Positions 47,365 through 54,648 of a stretch of 63,596 bases of DNA are shown in pieces. Source of the DNA: a virus. Its lineage: Duplodnaviria; Caudoviricetes. The stretch's first letter is position 1; each line of letters begins with the position of its first letter. A program made the translations under genes and the position numbers. Where the stretch lies: positions 1 through 63,596 of the IMG/VR virus record IMGVR_UViG_3300005098_000067. The stretch is one strand, 5' to 3'. The notes below the pieces were generated by a model that saw only the letters and a list, made by a program, of their open reading frames with translations, made no database searches and was not told the DNA's origin.

Positions 47365-47592
47365 CTAACGGCATAACCCTGCTGCTTCGTCCAGCCAGGC
47401 GATCTCCGTCTGGCCATTGTGTCCATGGATGGCTCGGACGTCGGCTATGTCGTCATAGACGGCAACCGACCTTAGCTTTGTGAGCCAGGCTACCACGCAT
47501 TTGCCCGTGGAGAACTGCACTCCCTCCGCGACTATCCCTGTGCCCGAGATCCCCGATTCGTCTACCTTCCTGTCCAAGATGAAGCAACGCAT
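47365..47592 (-). CDS. conserved small phage protein (D.SGISGTG.VAEGV.F family)
   Basis: Recognisable motif ending IHGHNG.T. Confidence 0.7.
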   Translation of the reverse strand: MRCFILDRKVDESGISGTGIVAEGVQFSTGKCVVAWLTKLRSVAVYDDIADVRAIHGHNGQTEIAWLDEAAGLCR

Positions 47593-49697
47593 CACCGAAA
47601 CCTCAGGAAGCAATAGCAACCCGGGTGATAGGCAGGACCGAAGTAGCCGGGTACTACCTCGGCACTTAACGGCACCCAGCCGGCCGCCTCCGCTCTGATG
47701 CAGACTCCAGAAGGGCAGGGGCGACCGTAATCCGCCCGAACTGATGACTTCTCGACCATACCTGCATCCTCGGCGGCAGTGAGCTGACCTTGGGCCCATA
47801 GAGCTGTATTCTCAGTGACCCCTATCCTCTTGGCGCGGGCTTCCCCGAAAAGAGGAATCAGAGCGTCTTCCAAATCTGACCAGGCCAGAGTGCCATCTGC
47901 AAGCCGGGCGCGAACCTTGCCCAACTTGGAGCGAGTCACGCGGACTATGGACTCGTCCCCATCCAACTTGACCAGAGCAAACGCCTGCTGCTCGGCCAGC
48001 AGGCGAATCCGATCGTTGATCCGCTCGAACGAGAAGTCTAACCCTGTGGAGCTCGCACCCTGGCCCGCTGTCAACTGGTAGGGACCTAATACTTGCTCGC
48101 GGATGGAATCCCCCCAGTCCTCCCAGTAGGAATCCTCATCAAGACTGTCAGGGTCATCCTCGAGGCGGGCAAGCACATCCCTCTTCCACCGAGCCAGAAT
48201 AGCCGTGAACAGTGCTGTCAACGTCTCCCAATCCTTGCGCATCAGGCTGATCATGGCCTCTATGCCTGCTCGCTCGCGGGCTGTCTTCAGCACGGGTAGG
48301 GCGGAGCTGTTCAGGTCCCAATAGCGACGGTGGCGAATCAGTACCCCTTCGGGATACCGCATTGTCCCCACGTCGCAACCCCACAGCTCACGCAATACAT
48401 CCGTCGCCAACCGTTCGGGCGGGGTGACGTAGCGCTGTGGGATTACCTGCTGCTCGGCCAGCATTTCCCGGATTTCCTCCCGCTCGAAGAGGCGCTCTCC
48501 CTTAGCATCCGGAGCCCACAGTTCCTTGGCATTCCTGATCCGTAGGGCGCGGATCTCCTCAACCAGCTTGTCCTGCTCGTCGTCAGGCGTGTCAAACCGC
48601 CAGTAGAATCCCTTGGGCAGCTGGCGATTCACCCAACGCTCCCAAGAGACCATGAACTCGGCCGGGCCTTTGCCCAGAGCCTTCCGATGTTGCAAGGACG
48701 CCTGGGCCTTGGTCGCCCCGTGCGCCTCGATCTGATAGAATTCAGCCACGTCCTCCCCGGCGTCCAGGGCAAGGGTCTTCATGAACCGCTGCATGAACGC
48801 CGCATCGTCAAATCCTTCCCACACCGAGCGAAAGGACGTCCAGGAGACCTCAGCTTTTTGACCATACGTGTTACTGACCAGCCACAACACCCCAGGGAAG
48901 ACCAGCGAGCCTGCCTCCTGCCGCTTTAGATCGAACTCCAGCAAAGCATTCTCCAGCTGGGGCTTCGTCAAGCCCGTGACGCTGGCAATCCCTGAAGGCG
49001 GCAGATTTCCCAACCGCTCCTCTTTGAACTCCAACTCCTCGGCTGCCAGGGCTGCCTCCCTGAGAACCCGGCTCATGAAACAAAAGCCCAGCATCCGCCG
49101 CCACTGGTCGGCGCTGGGCATAGAGCAAATCCGCACAAACTGGCCCCGCTTGAGCCCCTTCCAACGTCCGTCAGCATCCATGAACAAAAGGTCGAATATT
49201 TCTGTCCCCACGCGTACAGGGCCAGGGACGCAGGTTCGCGCCTGCATCCACCAGATCTTTTGCAGCGGGCCGTCTGGTTGCCATTCCCGAGCTGTCTCGA
49301 TGATGAACCCCTCGTCAGTGCTCAGGTAGTCGATGTAGCCGGGGCGAATGAAGTCCGTCCAGCCGTCCAGGTCGGCCCCGGCGAATATCTCATACTGGCG
49401 CTCCAGCTGCTTGACCGGGCCCGAAATGGACCAACCCAATGCTGCCACACGCGAGACCATGCTGAACATGACCCCCGACAGGCGCGAGTCGGCTCTCCAG
49501 ACAGCCTCCAGGAAGGCAGGGCGGGTTATGGGCGTCCCCCAGGGCGGAGCGGCGTCGTGGGCCGTGCGCAGCCAGTCCGCGTAGGAGGCCATGATCCAGC
49601 CGCCCTGGGCCAATATCTCGGGCCTCTCGATCCGCGCCTGGACGCTTCTCGGCGAATCTCCCTTGGCATCCGTGATAGCTACCAATTCATCCAGCAT
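47592..49697 (-). CDS. portal protein fused to a MuF (minor head) domain
   Basis: Portal-sized N-terminus; C-terminal RAKRIGVTE...C..C...PAYHPGCYC MuF signature. Confidence 0.8.
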   Translation of the reverse strand: MLDELVAITDAKGDSPRSVQARIERPEILAQGGWIMASYADWLRTAHDAAPPWGTPITRPAFLEAVWRADSRLSGVMFSMVSRVAALGWSISGPVKQLERQYEIFAGADLDGWTDFIRPGYIDYLSTDEGFIIETAREWQPDGPLQKIWWMQARTCVPGPVRVGTEIFDLLFMDADGRWKGLKRGQFVRICSMPSADQWRRMLGFCFMSRVLREAALAAEELEFKEERLGNLPPSGIASVTGLTKPQLENALLEFDLKRQEAGSLVFPGVLWLVSNTYGQKAEVSWTSFRSVWEGFDDAAFMQRFMKTLALDAGEDVAEFYQIEAHGATKAQASLQHRKALGKGPAEFMVSWERWVNRQLPKGFYWRFDTPDDEQDKLVEEIRALRIRNAKELWAPDAKGERLFEREEIREMLAEQQVIPQRYVTPPERLATDVLRELWGCDVGTMRYPEGVLIRHRRYWDLNSSALPVLKTARERAGIEAMISLMRKDWETLTALFTAILARWKRDVLARLEDDPDSLDEDSYWEDWGDSIREQVLGPYQLTAGQGASSTGLDFSFERINDRIRLLAEQQAFALVKLDGDESIVRVTRSKLGKVRARLADGTLAWSDLEDALIPLFGEARAKRIGVTENTALWAQGQLTAAEDAGMVEKSSVRADYGRPCPSGVCIRAEAAGWVPLSAEVVPGYFGPAYHPGCYCFLRFR

Positions 49698-50466
49698 CGC
49701 CGACCTCCCCTGTCCTAGCGGTCAAATAATCTGACTCATCCTGTAGCCAATCTGGATTGCCGCTAACTCGCACCGCCCGCTCCAAGACATCGTAGTTCTC
49801 GACAATGAGCGACAACGGGTACAAGTTCTGCCGCCGCAGTGGGCTGGTCATGGGGCTGTCCTGGACGCCCAGAAATTCACAGATGCGGCGATTTGTCTCC
49901 GGTGGCAAAGCTGAGGCTTCCATCGCTTCCGCGCCCACGATCTGCGCATAGGTCAGCTCCAAGACCGGGAGCCCGGTGCCCGCAAGCCTCTCCCGCATCC
50001 TCCCTATCTGGCGCTCCAGCTTCCTGGCCTGCTTGAGGACATTTTCTGGATCAACCGTTATCCTGGTCAACGGCCCGACCTCGAACGAGTGCTCCTGGCG
50101 AGAGGGCAAATCCCCCCGCCTGGCCCTGGTGTGCAGGATGGCCGAGATCGCCGTACGTAGGAGATTGCCTCTGGTCAGGTGGATGACCTTGGCCTGACGG
50201 TTCGTTAGATAGTTCAAAACTGGATCGGTGACCTGCTTGTACGTGACCTTGCACATGGCTACTGAGTAGCCCCATTGGCCATGGACGATCTGAAGTATCT
50301 GAACCGGGGACAGCTTGGCTTTGCGGAAGGCGGAGCGCATCTCGAGGGGCTCCGAACGAGGGCAGAAAACCTGAGGATGCGTGGATAAACAGTGCGCCAG
50401 GAACGTGGAACCGGAACGCACGTGCGCTATCAGAATGGCCGGCCTGGTTTCGAGCCACGACTTCAT
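49687..50466 (-). CDS. sulfotransferase (Stf0-like)
   Basis: HVRSGSTFL..LSTHP, KVIHLTRGNLLRTAIS, LTY..I and VENYD motifs. Confidence 0.8.
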   Translation of the reverse strand: MKSWLETRPAILIAHVRSGSTFLAHCLSTHPQVFCPRSEPLEMRSAFRKAKLSPVQILQIVHGQWGYSVAMCKVTYKQVTDPVLNYLTNRQAKVIHLTRGNLLRTAISAILHTRARRGDLPSRQEHSFEVGPLTRITVDPENVLKQARKLERQIGRMRERLAGTGLPVLELTYAQIVGAEAMEASALPPETNRRICEFLGVQDSPMTSPLRRQNLYPLSLIVENYDVLERAVRVSGNPDWLQDESDYLTARTGEVGDAG

Positions 50467-50504
50467 TGCAAGCTCCTATGTGACTCAGTGCAATACTAGC
50501 CTAC

Positions 50505-50533
50505 ATTATAACAGAAGACAGGCGATCTGTCAA
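50505..50533 (-). promoter_or_regulatory. consensus sigma70-type promoter with extended -10
   Basis: TTGACA-17 bp-TATAAT with TGn. Confidence 0.85.
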
Positions 50534-50558
50534 TCACTCCACAAATCTTATCCGTCGC

Positions 50559-51098
50559 TCAGAACCTCCTGCACTTTACCCGCTTGCACCCTAACTCAAC
50601 TTGACGCGGGCCGAACCCTGCACGCGCCTCCTTGTCGAGCCACAACGGATGGTCGGCCAGAGAAGCGTACTCAATCTCGAAGGCATTGGGGATCAACGCT
50701 CTCTGATGCGAGGCCCAAAAGTCGTACTTGACCTGGGCAATGCAGCCCTCCGTGAGACCGTAACCGGCCAGTTCACGCTGCATCCTGCGCCCTGTCCAAC
50801 CTATCCGCTGCTGTGACTCCAGAATCTCGGCCAGGGGGCGACGCATGAGCACTACGGCCACTTCCGGCCCCGCAAGCTCGTGAATCCAGCGGCAAAGGCC
50901 CGGGCACTGCAAGACAAACTCGCTCTCCTCGGCAAGCAACCTCCGAGCCGCGTCTAGCGAGCGAACACTCACGACCTCCTCCGGCAAGAACCTGTACCCC
51001 AGGTCATGGGCAATCATCATCGCGCAAATGGTCGTCCCTGACCGCTGAGGACCGGTGACCAAAATCTGACCGAACCTGGACAACTGGGCGAACATCAA
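50559..51098 (-). CDS. sulfotransferase-like P-loop protein
   Basis: ILVTGPQRSGTT, MRRP..I..S and IEY.SL motifs. Confidence 0.7.
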   Translation of the reverse strand: MMFAQLSRFGQILVTGPQRSGTTICAMMIAHDLGYRFLPEEVVSVRSLDAARRLLAEESEFVLQCPGLCRWIHELAGPEVAVVLMRRPLAEILESQQRIGWTGRRMQRELAGYGLTEGCIAQVKYDFWASHQRALIPNAFEIEYASLADHPLWLDKEARAGFGPRQVELGCKRVKCRRF

Positions 51099-51596
51099 CC
51101 TCCACCTAACGCCCCAAGGGGCAGGATTTTGAGAAAAATAGACCGAGTCGGGGGACGGGATACCTGGTATTCTGAGACCGCCAATATTTTTTTCTGACTT
51201 AGGGTAGGGATAATAAGAATTATGCGAACCATGACCGGCCTGGGCGCATGTTAATGTAAGTTAGCGATGTTTAGCGTATAAGCGTTAAATGCGCTAGTGG
51301 GGCAGGAAAATAGGAAGCCCTCTAGCCTTATGAGAGGCGGAACACTCCGCGTCCCTTTGCTCCGCCTCGTCTCCCCAAACCTTCTAGGGCTCTCCTGGCC
51401 CTAGAGCGGGTTTCAGTAGGGCAGGGAAGGGGATAGGGAAGCGGGAAGGGCGATTGGCAGCTGTGATGCTGCGAAGAGTTTGCTCGCCCTAGCTCCTCGG
51501 CCTGTATTGTGGGCCTATGAGCTATGGTCTTGTCCTTGTTGCCGGGTAAGCCTACCATACCTTCCTCGCCGGTCTGGTTACCCTCGCGTTCTTACT

Positions 51597-53054
51597 CTAG
51601 ACGACCAATGCCCCCCCGGCTTGTATGCCCCCAAATCGGGCGGCCTCGGCGAGGACGTGTTCAGCGGCATCCGAGAAGTCGTTGAGCTTCTTCACCTCTA
51701 ATCCCTTTGTGTTTCTGTGGAGTGCTTTGAACTGTTGGGCGACCGTGGGGCAGGCCTCGCGGTCTATCTGGAGCAGGGGGCCTTTGTCGGGGTCAATGAG
51801 CCTCCGTACCAGCCTATGGCGTTCTTCACGCCGCATGACCCGCAGGGGGACGACCACCAGGCCTGCCTCGGCGAACGCGGCAAGGGATGAGGGCTGATCT
51901 GGCGGGCAGAAGAAGGGCGTATCCCAGCCGTACTTGTCGGCCAGCGATACTGCTATCTCCAGTTCCCTGGATGGGGTGCAGAAGCGCTCTCCCCGTTCCT
52001 CAATGAGCCAATAGCGGCCCCCTGGGAGCTCAGCAGCGACGACGAAGACGAGCGGGTGATCGAACCCCCAGTCCACTCCTACGCCCTGGGGAGTACGGCG
52101 CAGCTTGGCTACCTCAGGAGCTAGGCGGGAGGCGTGCACCTCGACGGAGAAGCGAGGGAAGATGAGCATTTCGCGCTCCGGGGCGGCCAGGAGTTTCTGT
52201 ACCAGGAAGGTCTCCGCGTCCGAGGATAAGTACTCGTCTATGGCATCGACGCGTCTTACCCAGCCGTCCGCTCTAATGCACCGCCCGCCGCAGAGTGGCT
52301 CTTTCTTGTTCGTTCGCGGGTTCGTCCAGACGAAGAGCGGGCACTTCTCCCGGAGGCAGGTCTCACAGCGCTGCATGGTCTCCCAAAGGCACCATCGGTA
52401 GGTCTTGTACCCCCGCGCCCTTGCTATGGGGAGCAACTCTTGCATGAGCCCGTAGGCTGTGTACCGAGTGCTTATAGCCGCGCGTTGGGGCGGGTTGGCT
52501 TTCGAGCCCGAAAGCATGAGCTGGGCCGTCTCGAAGTTCTGGAACGACCAGAGGTCTATCTCGTCCATGATCAGCCTGTTACAGCGAATGGCCGTGACCC
52601 CTGTAGGCGTGTGACCTGAAAGGGCGCGAACCCAGGACCCGTTCTTCCAGGTGATGCTCCCGGCCACGTTCCGCGCAATGTCGGCAGCTAAAGCTGGCTC
52701 TTTGAGCATGTCGACCAGGTAGCCGTGCCCCCATTCCCCCTGGCTGCCTATGGCCCCATAGTGCGCTGTGCCTGAACCTGGATAGAACTTCGAGGCGAGC
52801 AGGTTCAGGATGGCCAGGTTTCGGGTCTTGCCTGCACCACGAGCGGCCAGGACCAGGGCTCTCTGAACCTTGCGGAAGAACATGTCCGAGACGAACGTGA
52901 AGGGGGCTTGGTGGTCTGGACAGACGGCTACACGGGGAATCTTGAAGCCGAGGACGGCATGGATCCAGGCGTGGAGCGCTTCGGGCGTCTTGGGGCGACG
53001 GCCGGAGACTACCAGGAGCTGCCAAAGGTTGCTGAGGAGGCTTTCGTCGGTCAT
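51597..53054 (-). CDS. terL: terminase large subunit
   Basis: AARGAGKT (Walker A), LIMDEID (Walker B), IST, GVDWGFDHP nuclease motif and C-terminal NDFSDA. Confidence 0.9.
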   Translation of the reverse strand: MTDESLLSNLWQLLVVSGRRPKTPEALHAWIHAVLGFKIPRVAVCPDHQAPFTFVSDMFFRKVQRALVLAARGAGKTRNLAILNLLASKFYPGSGTAHYGAIGSQGEWGHGYLVDMLKEPALAADIARNVAGSITWKNGSWVRALSGHTPTGVTAIRCNRLIMDEIDLWSFQNFETAQLMLSGSKANPPQRAAISTRYTAYGLMQELLPIARARGYKTYRWCLWETMQRCETCLREKCPLFVWTNPRTNKKEPLCGGRCIRADGWVRRVDAIDEYLSSDAETFLVQKLLAAPEREMLIFPRFSVEVHASRLAPEVAKLRRTPQGVGVDWGFDHPLVFVVAAELPGGRYWLIEERGERFCTPSRELEIAVSLADKYGWDTPFFCPPDQPSSLAAFAEAGLVVVPLRVMRREERHRLVRRLIDPDKGPLLQIDREACPTVAQQFKALHRNTKGLEVKKLNDFSDAAEHVLAEAARFGGIQAGGALVV

Positions 53055-54646
53055 TTGTCGTCGTTGGGTGGGCGGAGCAATTCAGGGGCCAAATCCCGAA
53101 TGCCAGCGATCTGCTCCAGCAAGCGTGTGAACTGCTCCTCCTCCATGCCTGCAACGATGACATTCAGGGTTCTAGCGTCTACCTTCGTCCCGGTCTCCAG
53201 CTTGCCCAGCAACCGGCCCAGGAGCGCAATGTCTCCTGAAAGCTGAGCTGAGAGACCGGATGCCTCTTTGGTCAGAGCCCCTCCCAGGGCCACCGACTCG
53301 ATGAGCAACTGGCGAGACAGCCGCGCTGAGTCCATCTGAACTTTTGCCCACATGAAGTTCAACAGGCCCTCGAAGTTGCGACTGCCTAGCATATCGCCTA
53401 GGGCCGCAAATTCATTATCAAACGCGCAAGCTGCCCCCTCTTCATACCTGGGGCATTTGCCCATCAGGGCGCAATCGTCACAGCGCAGCCGAGGCACCCG
53501 AGCCGTGTCCTGACCGGCTCGAAGAGCGTAAACATTGCCCTTCTGCGCCTCGGAGATGGCTGCCTTGTGCTCCGGGGAGAGTGTCACTTGCCGGGGAGGC
53601 TTGTTGCCGCCCCGACCTAACCCGTGCCTTTTACACGCCCCTTCTGTCTCCGGTGACCCACAGGTGCAGATTTCATTTTCATTCACCACGGGCAAGAGCT
53701 CTGGCGGGGGCTGATTCCAATAGTCGAGCTTGCGACGGCGCTGGACCTCCGTCAAATAGGTCTCAAAGTAGGCCCACACCCTGGCATTGACAAAATCTAC
53801 CGCGCGTGCGTCGTCTTCGAGGTAGGGCGTGACCAGCTCCTCAGGGACGGGCAAACCCTTGGCTTCTAGGTCACGGAGCACTTTCTCCCGTCTATGCCTC
53901 CTCTCCCGCAGGTCCCCGGTCTCAAAGTGCCCAATCCCTCGCGCCGGGTCCAGGAAATACGTCGAGCCGTACATCGACCCGGCCTTCCAGGACGTGGAAT
54001 CGACCGAGAAGAACCCCGGCACCTTGTATAGCACCTCCAAAGCTGTCGTGGCAAAGGAGTGCAACTTCGCCCCGTGCTTCCTGCACCTTCCCAAAATCCG
54101 CATCTGGCCGTTCACGCCGGCGAGAATCCCGGTTGAGCCCGCTCCCTGGGTGGCCACATACGGGAACTCCGAGGCCCACTCCTCCCAAACCTGCCAGCAC
54201 CGCCCTCCCACCTGCACGTCCTGGCTGGTATGAAAAACAGGAACGTACTTCTCACGGGGGAATCCGGCCTTGAGCGCCTGCTCACGCCAGGACAAGACCG
54301 TGGGCAAGCCCACGATGCTGTCGATGTCTAGCTCCACAAACGCATCGGCATACTCGTGGAACTCCAGAAGAAACTCCAGGTAGTCGGCCCAGAAGTCCTC
54401 CGGCTTGCCTACGGAGGTCTTGCGCTGCTTGGTGGCAATGAAGCCCGCCTCCGAGAAAAACGAGTGAGCCCCTGAGTCGATCATGACAAACTCGAAGTTC
54501 TTTCGCAGCTGTTCCAGGCGCTCCCGTTTCTTGGCTGGCGATAGTTTGCGCAGGATGACGAAGGACGTCAAGACTGACTTGGCCCCTGCCCGGGCCAGCA
54601 GTTCAATGTCCTTCGCCCTATCCGCCCCTGCCAAACAGAGATGCAT
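53051..54646 (-). CDS. TGT/DpdA-like TIM-barrel protein fused to a terminase-small-subunit-like C-terminus
   Basis: LTSF, MIDSGAHS, ELDID, PVFH, LHSF and SVDSTSW, then QKGNVYALRAG, CxxC...C..C and a helical tail. ATGA-coupled to terL. Confidence 0.7.
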   Translation of the reverse strand: MHLCLAGADRAKDIELLARAGAKSVLTSFVILRKLSPAKKRERLEQLRKNFEFVMIDSGAHSFFSEAGFIATKQRKTSVGKPEDFWADYLEFLLEFHEYADAFVELDIDSIVGLPTVLSWREQALKAGFPREKYVPVFHTSQDVQVGGRCWQVWEEWASEFPYVATQGAGSTGILAGVNGQMRILGRCRKHGAKLHSFATTALEVLYKVPGFFSVDSTSWKAGSMYGSTYFLDPARGIGHFETGDLRERRHRREKVLRDLEAKGLPVPEELVTPYLEDDARAVDFVNARVWAYFETYLTEVQRRRKLDYWNQPPPELLPVVNENEICTCGSPETEGACKRHGLGRGGNKPPRQVTLSPEHKAAISEAQKGNVYALRAGQDTARVPRLRCDDCALMGKCPRYEEGAACAFDNEFAALGDMLGSRNFEGLLNFMWAKVQMDSARLSRQLLIESVALGGALTKEASGLSAQLSGDIALLGRLLGKLETGTKVDARTLNVIVAGMEEEQFTRLLEQIAGIRDLAPELLRPPNDDK

Positions 54647-54648
54647 TA

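Follow-up and report, generated by a model that had tools for sequence, protein, structure and literature searches.

This locus raises the question of why a phage should join a putative DNA-base-exchanging enzyme to a small-terminase-like module in one protein, encoded directly upstream of the gene for the large terminase subunit (TerL). The stretch analysed (the window) is the linear IMG/VR virus record IMGVR_UViG_3300005098_000067, 63,596 bp in length and ~58% complete by CheckV estimate, in which almost all long open reading frames (ORFs) lie on the minus strand. Its interval 51597-54646 consists of two minus-strand genes, the fused gene P0001 and terL (P0002). P0001 carries an N-terminal domain of the tRNA-guanine transglycosylase (TGT)/DpdA type, followed by a C-terminal module (C-module) with a four-cysteine (Cys4) knot and helices, and is probably a fusion of DpdA with a small terminase subunit (TerS). 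We consider it rather likely that the protein is bifunctional, i.e., an active DpdA tethered to the TerS of this phage or, as a minimum, to a subunit that docks on TerL. The parts of the two genes are as follows.

53051..54646, minus strand: fused gene P0001, DpdA-like domain plus Cys4/helical TerS-like module; a single uninterrupted ORF of 531 amino acids (aa)
53714..54646, minus strand: P0001 aa 1-311, TGT/DpdA-type TIM barrel with D57, D107, H139 and D216 (AlphaFold2 model, Foldseek, invariant residues)
53582..53713, minus strand: P0001 aa 312-355, linker with a Cys/His knot, C327, C329, C338 and H341 (modelled with lower confidence)
53201..53581, minus strand: P0001 aa 356-482, basic KGN stretch, Cys4 knot and helical hairpin, the TerS-like core (family search, phrog_6902)
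53069..53176, minus strand: P0001 aa 491-526, C-terminal tail helix, predicted TerL-binding element (complex prediction)
51597..53054, minus strand: terL, P0002, 485 aa (weak PHROG terminase-large-subunit matches)
52941..53030, minus strand: TerL aa 9-38, predicted tail-docking site (interface of the complex prediction)

Gene structure of P0001 and terL

The fused gene starts with the ATG at 54646, which has a Shine-Dalgarno-like GGGAGA 8 nt upstream, lies 2 nt after the stop of the preceding gene and coincides in alignment with the point where relatives, among them P0003 and P0004, begin. At the other end, the stop codon of P0001 and the ATG of terL share the sequence ATGA and no ORF lies between them, which confirms the coupling to terL claimed in a preliminary description of this DNA. 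P0002 gives weak PHROG matches to terminase large subunits (phrog_2, E 1.7e-4; phrog_5653, E 6.5e-4). No promoter-like sites were found in 50900-55500, none of the seven terminator-like sites found lies at the P0001/terL junction, and repeats around the two genes stay at chance level. Downstream of terL, 51099-51596 forms a gap of ~500 bp without a long minus-strand ORF, where the repeat and terminator scans were unremarkable.

The DpdA-like domain

The preliminary description assigned the first ~310 aa of P0001 to a TGT/DpdA-like domain, and this assignment is well supported. The motifs are present as DSGA 57-60, ELD 105-107, PVFH 136-139, H196-S-F198 and SVDSTSW 214-220, and aa 1-457 match phrog_887 (queuine tRNA-ribosyltransferase) at E 6.8e-34, alongside a weak match to phrog_7068 (E 0.015). 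An AlphaFold2 model built from a 143-row alignment reached a mean predicted local distance difference test (pLDDT) score of 87.9. When it was compared with the PDB using Foldseek, the nine best matches were all chains of eukaryotic TGT (TGT/QTRT1; E 4.5e-5 to 3.3e-3), with other, generic TIM barrels ranking below them. Residues D57-S-G-A60, D107, H139, H196 and D216-S-T-S-W220 are invariant in 8/8 aligned sequences (alignment A1). In Salmonella DpdA, Asp95 is the general acid/base, Asp130 and His181 recognise the base and Asp256 is the nucleophile, and two of these residues proved essential (PMC10164549). The order and spacing of the motifs suggest that D57, D107, H139 and D216 of P0001 correspond to these four residues. 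Judged by sequence and model, the N-terminal domain appears to be a DpdA-family enzyme and looks catalytically competent; it is from this that we infer its activity.

No match for this domain was returned by Pfam at E<=1, PF20314 (DpdA4, DUF6610) included, or by NCBIfam. Relatives found by tblastn, 13 records in total, came only from BCD7-type, Bacteroides, Fusobacterium and Mycobacterium phages. Short DpdA-like relatives of 243-314 aa stop where the barrel of P0001 ends, and in two loci such a short gene occurs in tandem, side-by-side copies (L080:6001-7533 and L189:1839-3430).

The barrel of canonical TGTs is followed by a zinc motif, C-x-C-x2-C...H. This motif was not seen in P0001, where a Cys/His knot, C327-x-C329-x8-C338-x2-H341, follows the barrel in its place. 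The knot, which had not been noticed in the preliminary description, is confined to the closest relatives; neither the 243-314-aa forms nor the stand-alone proteins of the L097 type described below have it.

The C-terminal module

All three features first noted in the second half of P0001, namely the KGN motif, the Cys4 cluster and a helical C-terminus, are present. In an exhaustive HMMER search, aa 312-531 matched 82 cluster representatives (E<=1e-3), and for 14 of these the match was as strong as E<=1e-10. Their common core spans ~aa 381-481. At least 90% of the 82 retain the Cys4 knot (C389, C392, C398, C407), R442, E450 and G455-G456, and the four cysteines are invariant in 48/48 stand-alone relatives. 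KGN itself lies at aa 369-371, and in many of the stand-alone proteins, which mostly measure 125-330 aa, the Cys4 knot is preceded by a basic stretch resembling G-N-x-N-A. When aa 312-531 were modelled (pLDDT 79.9), the linker came out poorly ordered, followed by a small Cys knot, a helical hairpin predicted with high confidence (aa 425-453 and 460-479) and, beyond a flexible stretch, a C-terminal helix. No helix-turn-helix was found in P0001. By eye, the relatives P0017 and P0025 have N-termini that look DNA-binding in the place of DpdA. That of P0017 is helix-turn-helix-like, and P0025 matches phrog_645; gp8 of phage Cracklewink, encoded directly upstream of its terminase, also bears the phrog_645 label.

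When the 82 members were compared with PHROG, 72 matched phrog_887, 35 phrog_6902 ('terminase small subunit'), three phrog_509 and one phrog_1889, the first of these counts being explained by the fact that the phrog_887 profile includes the module. P0001 itself matches phrog_6902 weakly (E 8.2e-5). A Pfam scan of the 82 returned no family except for one NUMOD3 match, and the C-terminal half of P0001 contains a faint NUMOD3-like stretch (E 0.061). Among the viral models of BFVD, two unnamed proteins ranked first, and the best match with a name was a Gordonia phage Jumbo 'terminase small subunit' (E 4.4e-3). A protein atlas yielded unnamed clusters (0.84) and weak leads to NUMOD3 and DUF5681 (0.79) that were not used. 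The 'unusual small terminase' of PMC8190038 was also considered as a match to the module and rejected, as the text concerns an FtsK-gamma domain.

PAPS-reductase-like genes were found near C-module genes in unrelated lineages (L097:445-1488, phrog_424, E 3.1e-55; L053:8468-9478, E 1.1e-41), a sign that the module may tend to occur alongside other enzymes that modify nucleic acids.

Occurrence of the fusion among relatives

Among the 82 cluster representatives with the C-module, 58 are stand-alone and 22 fused. A set of 87 proteins was classed with local hidden Markov models (HMMs) of the N- and C-terminal parts, built from the same loci that were later classified with them, and divided into 24 fused proteins, 58 with the C-module only, four with the N-terminal domain only and one with neither. 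Homologs split into the two parts, for which the preliminary description had proposed to look, thus occur in both forms. When viral contigs were scanned with an eight-sequence alignment, 339 relatives were detected. The N-terminal-domain ORFs of the 80 best loci and of the window formed 59 clusters, 14 fused and 45 unfused, a set that leaves out three annotated phages and the loci fetched by other queries. Gene calls in the loci of relatives are longest-ORF calls throughout.

These counts bear on the possibility, raised from the outset, that an assembly or sequencing error joined two neighbouring genes. Split forms of the gene do exist: one locus has it in two pieces, as if by a frameshift (L067), and another has the DpdA-like domain and the C-module as two adjacent ORFs (L043). 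Nevertheless, the ORF in the window is uninterrupted, fused proteins recur among both the 87 proteins and the viral-contig clusters, full-length fused relatives are known from several sources at 28-46% identity, and the PHROG 887 profile itself covers both parts. Bacillus phage BCD7 also has both parts in its 757-aa gp021, to which aa 3-499 of P0001 align. Because these two-part proteins are independent of one another, the fusion is not a sequencing artefact; an origin by error is extremely improbable.

The C-module and ParB-like genes exclude each other

A ParB-like ORF, detected with a local HMM grown from the ORFs of two of the loci so classified and situated before or after the DpdA-like gene, is present in the locus in 44/45 unfused clusters and in 0/14 fused clusters (Fisher's exact p = 1.1e-12), and lies <=300 bp from the DpdA-like gene in 37/45 unfused clusters. 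A PHROG scan of two unfused loci placed the ParB-like gene in phrog_723 (E 8e-20 and 3.4e-27). The sole unfused exception is L043, whose separate C-module ORF occupies exactly the ParB-like slot. An independent group of 22 genome-contig loci gave the same picture, with a ParB-like ORF in 15/21 unfused loci (several being very short) and 0/1 fused, and ParB_N had no match in the window record. In bacteria, DpdA shows no activity unless DpdB, a ParB-like ATPase, is present (PMC10164549). From the difference between unfused and fused clusters it follows that the module also replaces a DpdB-like partner, a point that goes beyond the preliminary description, and most simply the C-module can be read as a substitute for ParB-like DpdB.

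The same pattern can be read in another way, namely that the C-terminal half merely helps the transglycosylase to bind DNA or to oligomerise, in place of DpdB, and has no part in packaging. Its adjacency to terL would then be incidental, a reflection of how often deazaguanine genes are found upstream of terminase genes, and the true terS would lie elsewhere or in the missing part of the genome. We regard this as rather unlikely, albeit far from negligible. In its favour are both the exclusion of ParB-like genes and the dependence of bacterial DpdA on DpdB, and the layout of the unfused loci adds to them, as do the fused genes far from terL described below and the incompleteness of the record. 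In L013 the order is DpdA-like gene, ParB-like gene, phrog_309 terS, terL; a place near terL is thus reached there without any fusion. In L010 the ParB-like gene is separated from terL by a 228-aa ORF that has no match. Rosebush-type phages likewise keep their deazaguanine genes directly upstream of the terminase (PMC10484667).

Genes 1-9 of Mycobacterium phage Cracklewink (L002) include, in order, ParB-like, DpdA, QueD, QueE, FolE, a 147-aa 'RNaseE' and the terminase. Because its phrog_645 label also fits the N-terminus of P0025, the 'RNaseE' gene may be a mislabelled terS-type DNA-binding protein.

Association of the C-module with TerL

The position of P0001 recurs among its relatives. The fused gene overlaps or abuts terL in 5/14 fused clusters (the window, L004, L006, L008 and L038), and in L009 terL is 621 bp away. 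TerLs were recognised as one-step matches to PHROG-checked or annotated TerLs, and counts of terL proximity are therefore lower bounds; those of L004, L008, L038 and L009 were themselves checked against PHROG, that of L006 by a one-step match to checked TerLs alone. A further gene of the window bears on the setting.

47592..49697, minus strand: probable portal (phrog_2662 'portal protein', E 7.2e-4, weak)

Its location probably puts the fused gene within a packaging module.

The window TerL has 16 relatives, ten of them at 47-56% identity, and the gene neighbourhoods of the closest favour a TerS role for the module. Five loci (L097-L101), with TerLs at 55-56% identity, came from a scan that used the window TerL aligned with the ten close ones. 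All four that have upstream sequence (L097, L098, L099 and L101) encode a stand-alone C-module of 195-210 aa in the same run of overlapping genes, and none of the five contains a DpdA-like domain. These short proteins align to P0001 from ~aa 355 to its last residues, tail included, and the tail is conserved both in them and in the close fused relatives. In Gordonia phage Demosthenes the module occurs in gp9, which is encoded immediately before the terminase gene and bears the annotation terS; a local HMM found no DpdA-like domain in it.

Prediction of the complex with TerL, suggested in the preliminary description, gave a score of 0.74 for TerL with P0001 aa 380-531 (runs 0.72, 0.74 and 0.76), against 0.00 for the best of three controls. 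The mark reached was attained by 58/80 solved complexes and 2/110 mismatched pairs, counts that hold only roughly here because custom alignments were used. The runs share at least 40% of their contacts, with a partner pLDDT of at least 59. In the predicted interface the P0001 tail, aa 491-526, lies on TerL aa 9-38, and P21, L27, G36 and P40 of TerL are invariant in 11/11 close TerLs. That the prediction merely reproduces a solved TerS-TerL complex seems unlikely, because the module resembles no solved structure.

A number of observations nevertheless weigh against P0001 as an active DpdA with the TerS of this phage attached. The TerS label is drawn from PHROG and GenBank annotations, and the complex score is the predicting model's own confidence. 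Foldseek of the C-terminal half against the PDB found no resembling structure (best E 3.9), PDB sequence and profile searches with P0001, Demosthenes gp9 and a stand-alone profile returned nothing relevant, and the half matches no Pfam TerS family. In the L097-type loci an ORF of 571-597 aa lies between the stand-alone module and terL, joined in L099 by a second ORF of 378 aa. Six loci with more distant stand-alone relatives have no terL directly downstream, and in a wider stand-alone group (alignment A6; four viral and six metagenome loci) no terL was seen there either, so that the test was negative or uninformative. Among the fused clusters, 8/14 lack a terL <=3.5 kb downstream, although some loci end soon after the gene. 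BCD7 has its fused gene in a Que cluster ~61 kb from terL, and in 4/5 contigs searched with phrog_2 the distance, by arithmetic on contig ranges, is ~13 to 60 kb; in two of these a 251-269-aa ORF lies directly upstream of terL, which profile comparison found unrelated to the C-module (probability <1%). Fused genes so far from terL mean that the module can serve the enzyme without being TerS. With the record ~58% complete, its missing part could hold another terS or the genes of preQ0 synthesis. As to the enzyme, PF01702 (TGT) has no match anywhere in the record, and Mycobacterium phage Orion is described as having a lone DpdA and DNA without 7-deazaguanine (PMC6884629).

The conserved 571-597-aa ORF (L097:3241-4980, L099:1389-3104, L101:3186-4979) has no PHROG or Pfam match; by eye it contains NEP and TE motifs that we take to be like those of clan GH-A glycoside hydrolases.

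The claim that the C-terminal half is a TerS is thus upheld in part. Its position, the weak phrog_6902 match and the predicted docking on TerL agree with it; likeness to a solved or Pfam TerS was not found, and the distances in other lineages speak against a general TerS role. Scans of the record for Terminase_2, Terminase_4 and GP3_package gave no match, in line with the earlier statement that no separate terS is visible, within the limits of the record's completeness. Against the module being a mere accessory of the transglycosylase stand the closest TerL relatives, which carry the full C-terminal half in loci without DpdA, the 58/87 proteins that have the module alone, the docking predicted through a conserved tail, and the direct overlap with terL. 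The two roles are compatible, TerS-like in the lineage of the window and an alternative to the ParB-like partner across the family.

Possible supply of 7-deazaguanine and the role of the barrel

Two genes ~5 kb upstream of P0001 may serve the supply of modified base.

60067..60732, minus strand: QPTR/YhhQ-family preQ0/preQ1 transporter (PF02592, E 2.5e-31, 109.5 bits)
59733..60074, minus strand: QueF-like T-fold ORF of 113 aa, preQ0 reductase or QueF-L type (PF14489, phrog_5949)

The transporter gene has the same orientation as P0001, and the QueF-like ORF overlaps its start region by 8 nt. The YhhQ/QPTR family imports preQ0 and preQ1 (PMC11130926). The match of the QueF-like ORF to PF14489 scores 24.2 bits, below the 27.3-bit cut-off (E 2e-6 for the record, 4.1e-5 for the protein), and that to phrog_5949 has E 9.5e-7. 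By eye, the Cys-Pro of the QueF catalytic site is kept and the usual E-x-K-x-x-K-type stretch is missing, so that the ORF may be of the QueF-L type rather than a reductase. Both phage-encoded YhhQ homologs and the difficulty of separating QueF from QueF-L have been described (PMC6884629, PMC10516641). The overlapping minus-strand ORF at 59306-59893 matches only phrog_17812 (unknown function; E 8.7e-11). It shares the end of the QueF-like ORF in a different frame and therefore probably starts at an internal position. No match to QueC, GTP cyclohydrolase I (FolE) or PTPS (QueD) was found in the record, from which 42% of the genome is missing. In named phages, relatives carry the same kind of enzyme annotation as phrog_887, and fused or DpdA-like relatives do adjoin Que genes, BCD7 gp021 with FolE, QueC, QueE and QueD, and Cracklewink with FolE, QueD and QueE.

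It is conceivable that the barrel no longer exchanges bases and has become the DNA-recognition domain of an unusual TerS, flipping out and gripping a guanine at the packaging site, for example. TerS proteins do swap N-terminal DNA-binding domains, as the N-termini of P0017 and P0025 suggest by eye and as the TerS with an FtsK-gamma domain exemplifies (PMC8190038), and both the lack of FolE, QueC and QueD matches and the unmodified DNA of Orion would fit. However, all four catalytic and base-binding residues are invariant, a preQ0/preQ1 transporter and a QueF-like gene would be of little use without base insertion, and the absence of synthesis genes was noted in an incomplete record. A purely recognitive barrel is accordingly improbable.

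Proposed mechanism and significance

If P0001 is both DpdA and TerS, its parts could work together as follows. The helical hairpin would assemble P0001 into an oligomer on the phage DNA, with the basic KGN stretch and the Cys4 knot contacting the DNA, and the C-terminal helix (aa 491-526) would clamp the N-terminal helix of TerL (aa 9-38). The TIM barrels would thereby be held on DNA about to be packaged, and would there exchange guanine for a 7-deazaguanine base, salvaged by the QPTR/YhhQ transporter of the phage and processed by the QueF-like enzyme. The TerS-like module would take the DNA-handling place that a ParB-like (DpdB-like) protein has in unfused relatives. The analysis itself shows the fusion, the fold of the barrel, its conserved catalytic residues, the gene order, the exclusion of ParB-like genes and the predicted TerL contact; that P0001 oligomerises, binds DNA or acts at a pac site we infer. 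The preliminary description had proposed a physical coupling of base modification to packaging. Its examples, the marking or recognition of a pac site and the discrimination of self DNA, are speculative, and we put forward only tentatively, as a possibility that may well prove wrong, that base exchange is mechanically coupled to packaging, with a TerS-like oligomer holding an array of DpdA domains on TerL so that only capsid-bound DNA is modified. Insertion of 7-deazaguanine in phage DNA is held to be post-replicative (PMC10516641).

Were this coupling true, the terminase complex would supply the DNA handling that an ATP-driven ParB-like DpdB gives elsewhere, and the exclusion between C-module and ParB-like genes would be explained together with the position of DpdA-like genes upstream of the terminase in many unfused phages (15/45 clusters by a strict count). 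A scavenged precursor would not be wasted on host or unpackaged DNA. How a phage DpdA without bacterial DpdB finds its DNA, and when and where, would receive a concrete and testable answer in modification at the packaging complex.

The analysis also defines a widespread, unannotated Cys4/helical module, now hidden under the 'queuine tRNA-ribosyltransferase' label of PHROG 887, and with it a candidate TerS family for phages that have no annotated TerS. The comparative rule that a DpdA-like protein has a ParB-like partner or a C-module, never both, may guide the reconstitution of phage DpdA in vitro. The architecture is already in the databases, in BCD7 gp021 and PHROG 887, under an enzyme-only label. 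A full-text literature search found no paper on a DpdA-TerS fusion, the C-module or the exclusion of ParB-like genes, although supplementary tables, such as Supplementary Data 1 of PMC6884629 (182 viruses), may list such proteins.

Neighbouring genes

The terminase genes are surrounded by enzymes of sugar and sulfate type, which might act on DNA, virion proteins or host glycans. Upstream of P0001, 54649-59267 (minus strand) contains a GT2-like gene, GT2, GT1, a PIG-L deacetylase and a gene of the radical SAM/SPASM type. In L013, too, the DpdA-like gene has a glycosyltransferase-like gene before it. Between terL and the probable portal, 49687-51098 (minus strand) holds two sulfotransferase-like ORFs. 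ARAGORN reported one tRNA-Thr and two tRNA-like genes on the minus strand at 12493-12567, 13937-14008 and 16506-16596, the two tRNA-like genes having four-base anticodon loops (gcct and gcag) to which it gave no identity.

Comparison with known systems

Phage DpdA subfamilies 1-4 and their pathways have been described (PMC6884629, PMC10516641). P0001 shares with DpdA the TGT-type TIM barrel and the active-site set of a general-acid Asp, an Asp and a His for base binding and a nucleophile Asp. An association with 7-deazaguanine genes is seen in relatives and suggested in the window by the QPTR and QueF-like genes. It differs in its 220-aa C-terminal extension, in that no ParB-like DpdB partner was found, and in being unmatched by Pfam TGT and DUF6610.

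With TerS, P0001 has in common a gene directly upstream of terL and translationally coupled to it; the module measures ~200 aa where it stands alone, contains a helical hairpin at its centre, ends in a tail for which binding to the N-terminus of TerL is predicted, and matches phrog_6902. In contrast to TerS, it has no helix-turn-helix, so that DNA contact would go via the Cys4 knot and the KGN stretch, it is unlike solved TerS and Pfam TerS families, and it bears a 311-aa enzyme at its N-terminus.

Relative to the transglycosylase, the C-module fills the same slot as the ParB-like DpdB, but it does so without ParB likeness in sequence or fold and without a nucleoside triphosphatase motif, and as part of the same protein rather than a separate gene. 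BCD7 gp021 and PHROG 887 have the same two-part architecture as P0001. The 757-aa gp021 is encoded in a FolE-QueC-QueE-QueD cluster, whereas P0001 abuts terL and, unlike gp021, has a tail in common with the stand-alone proteins of its own TerL lineage.

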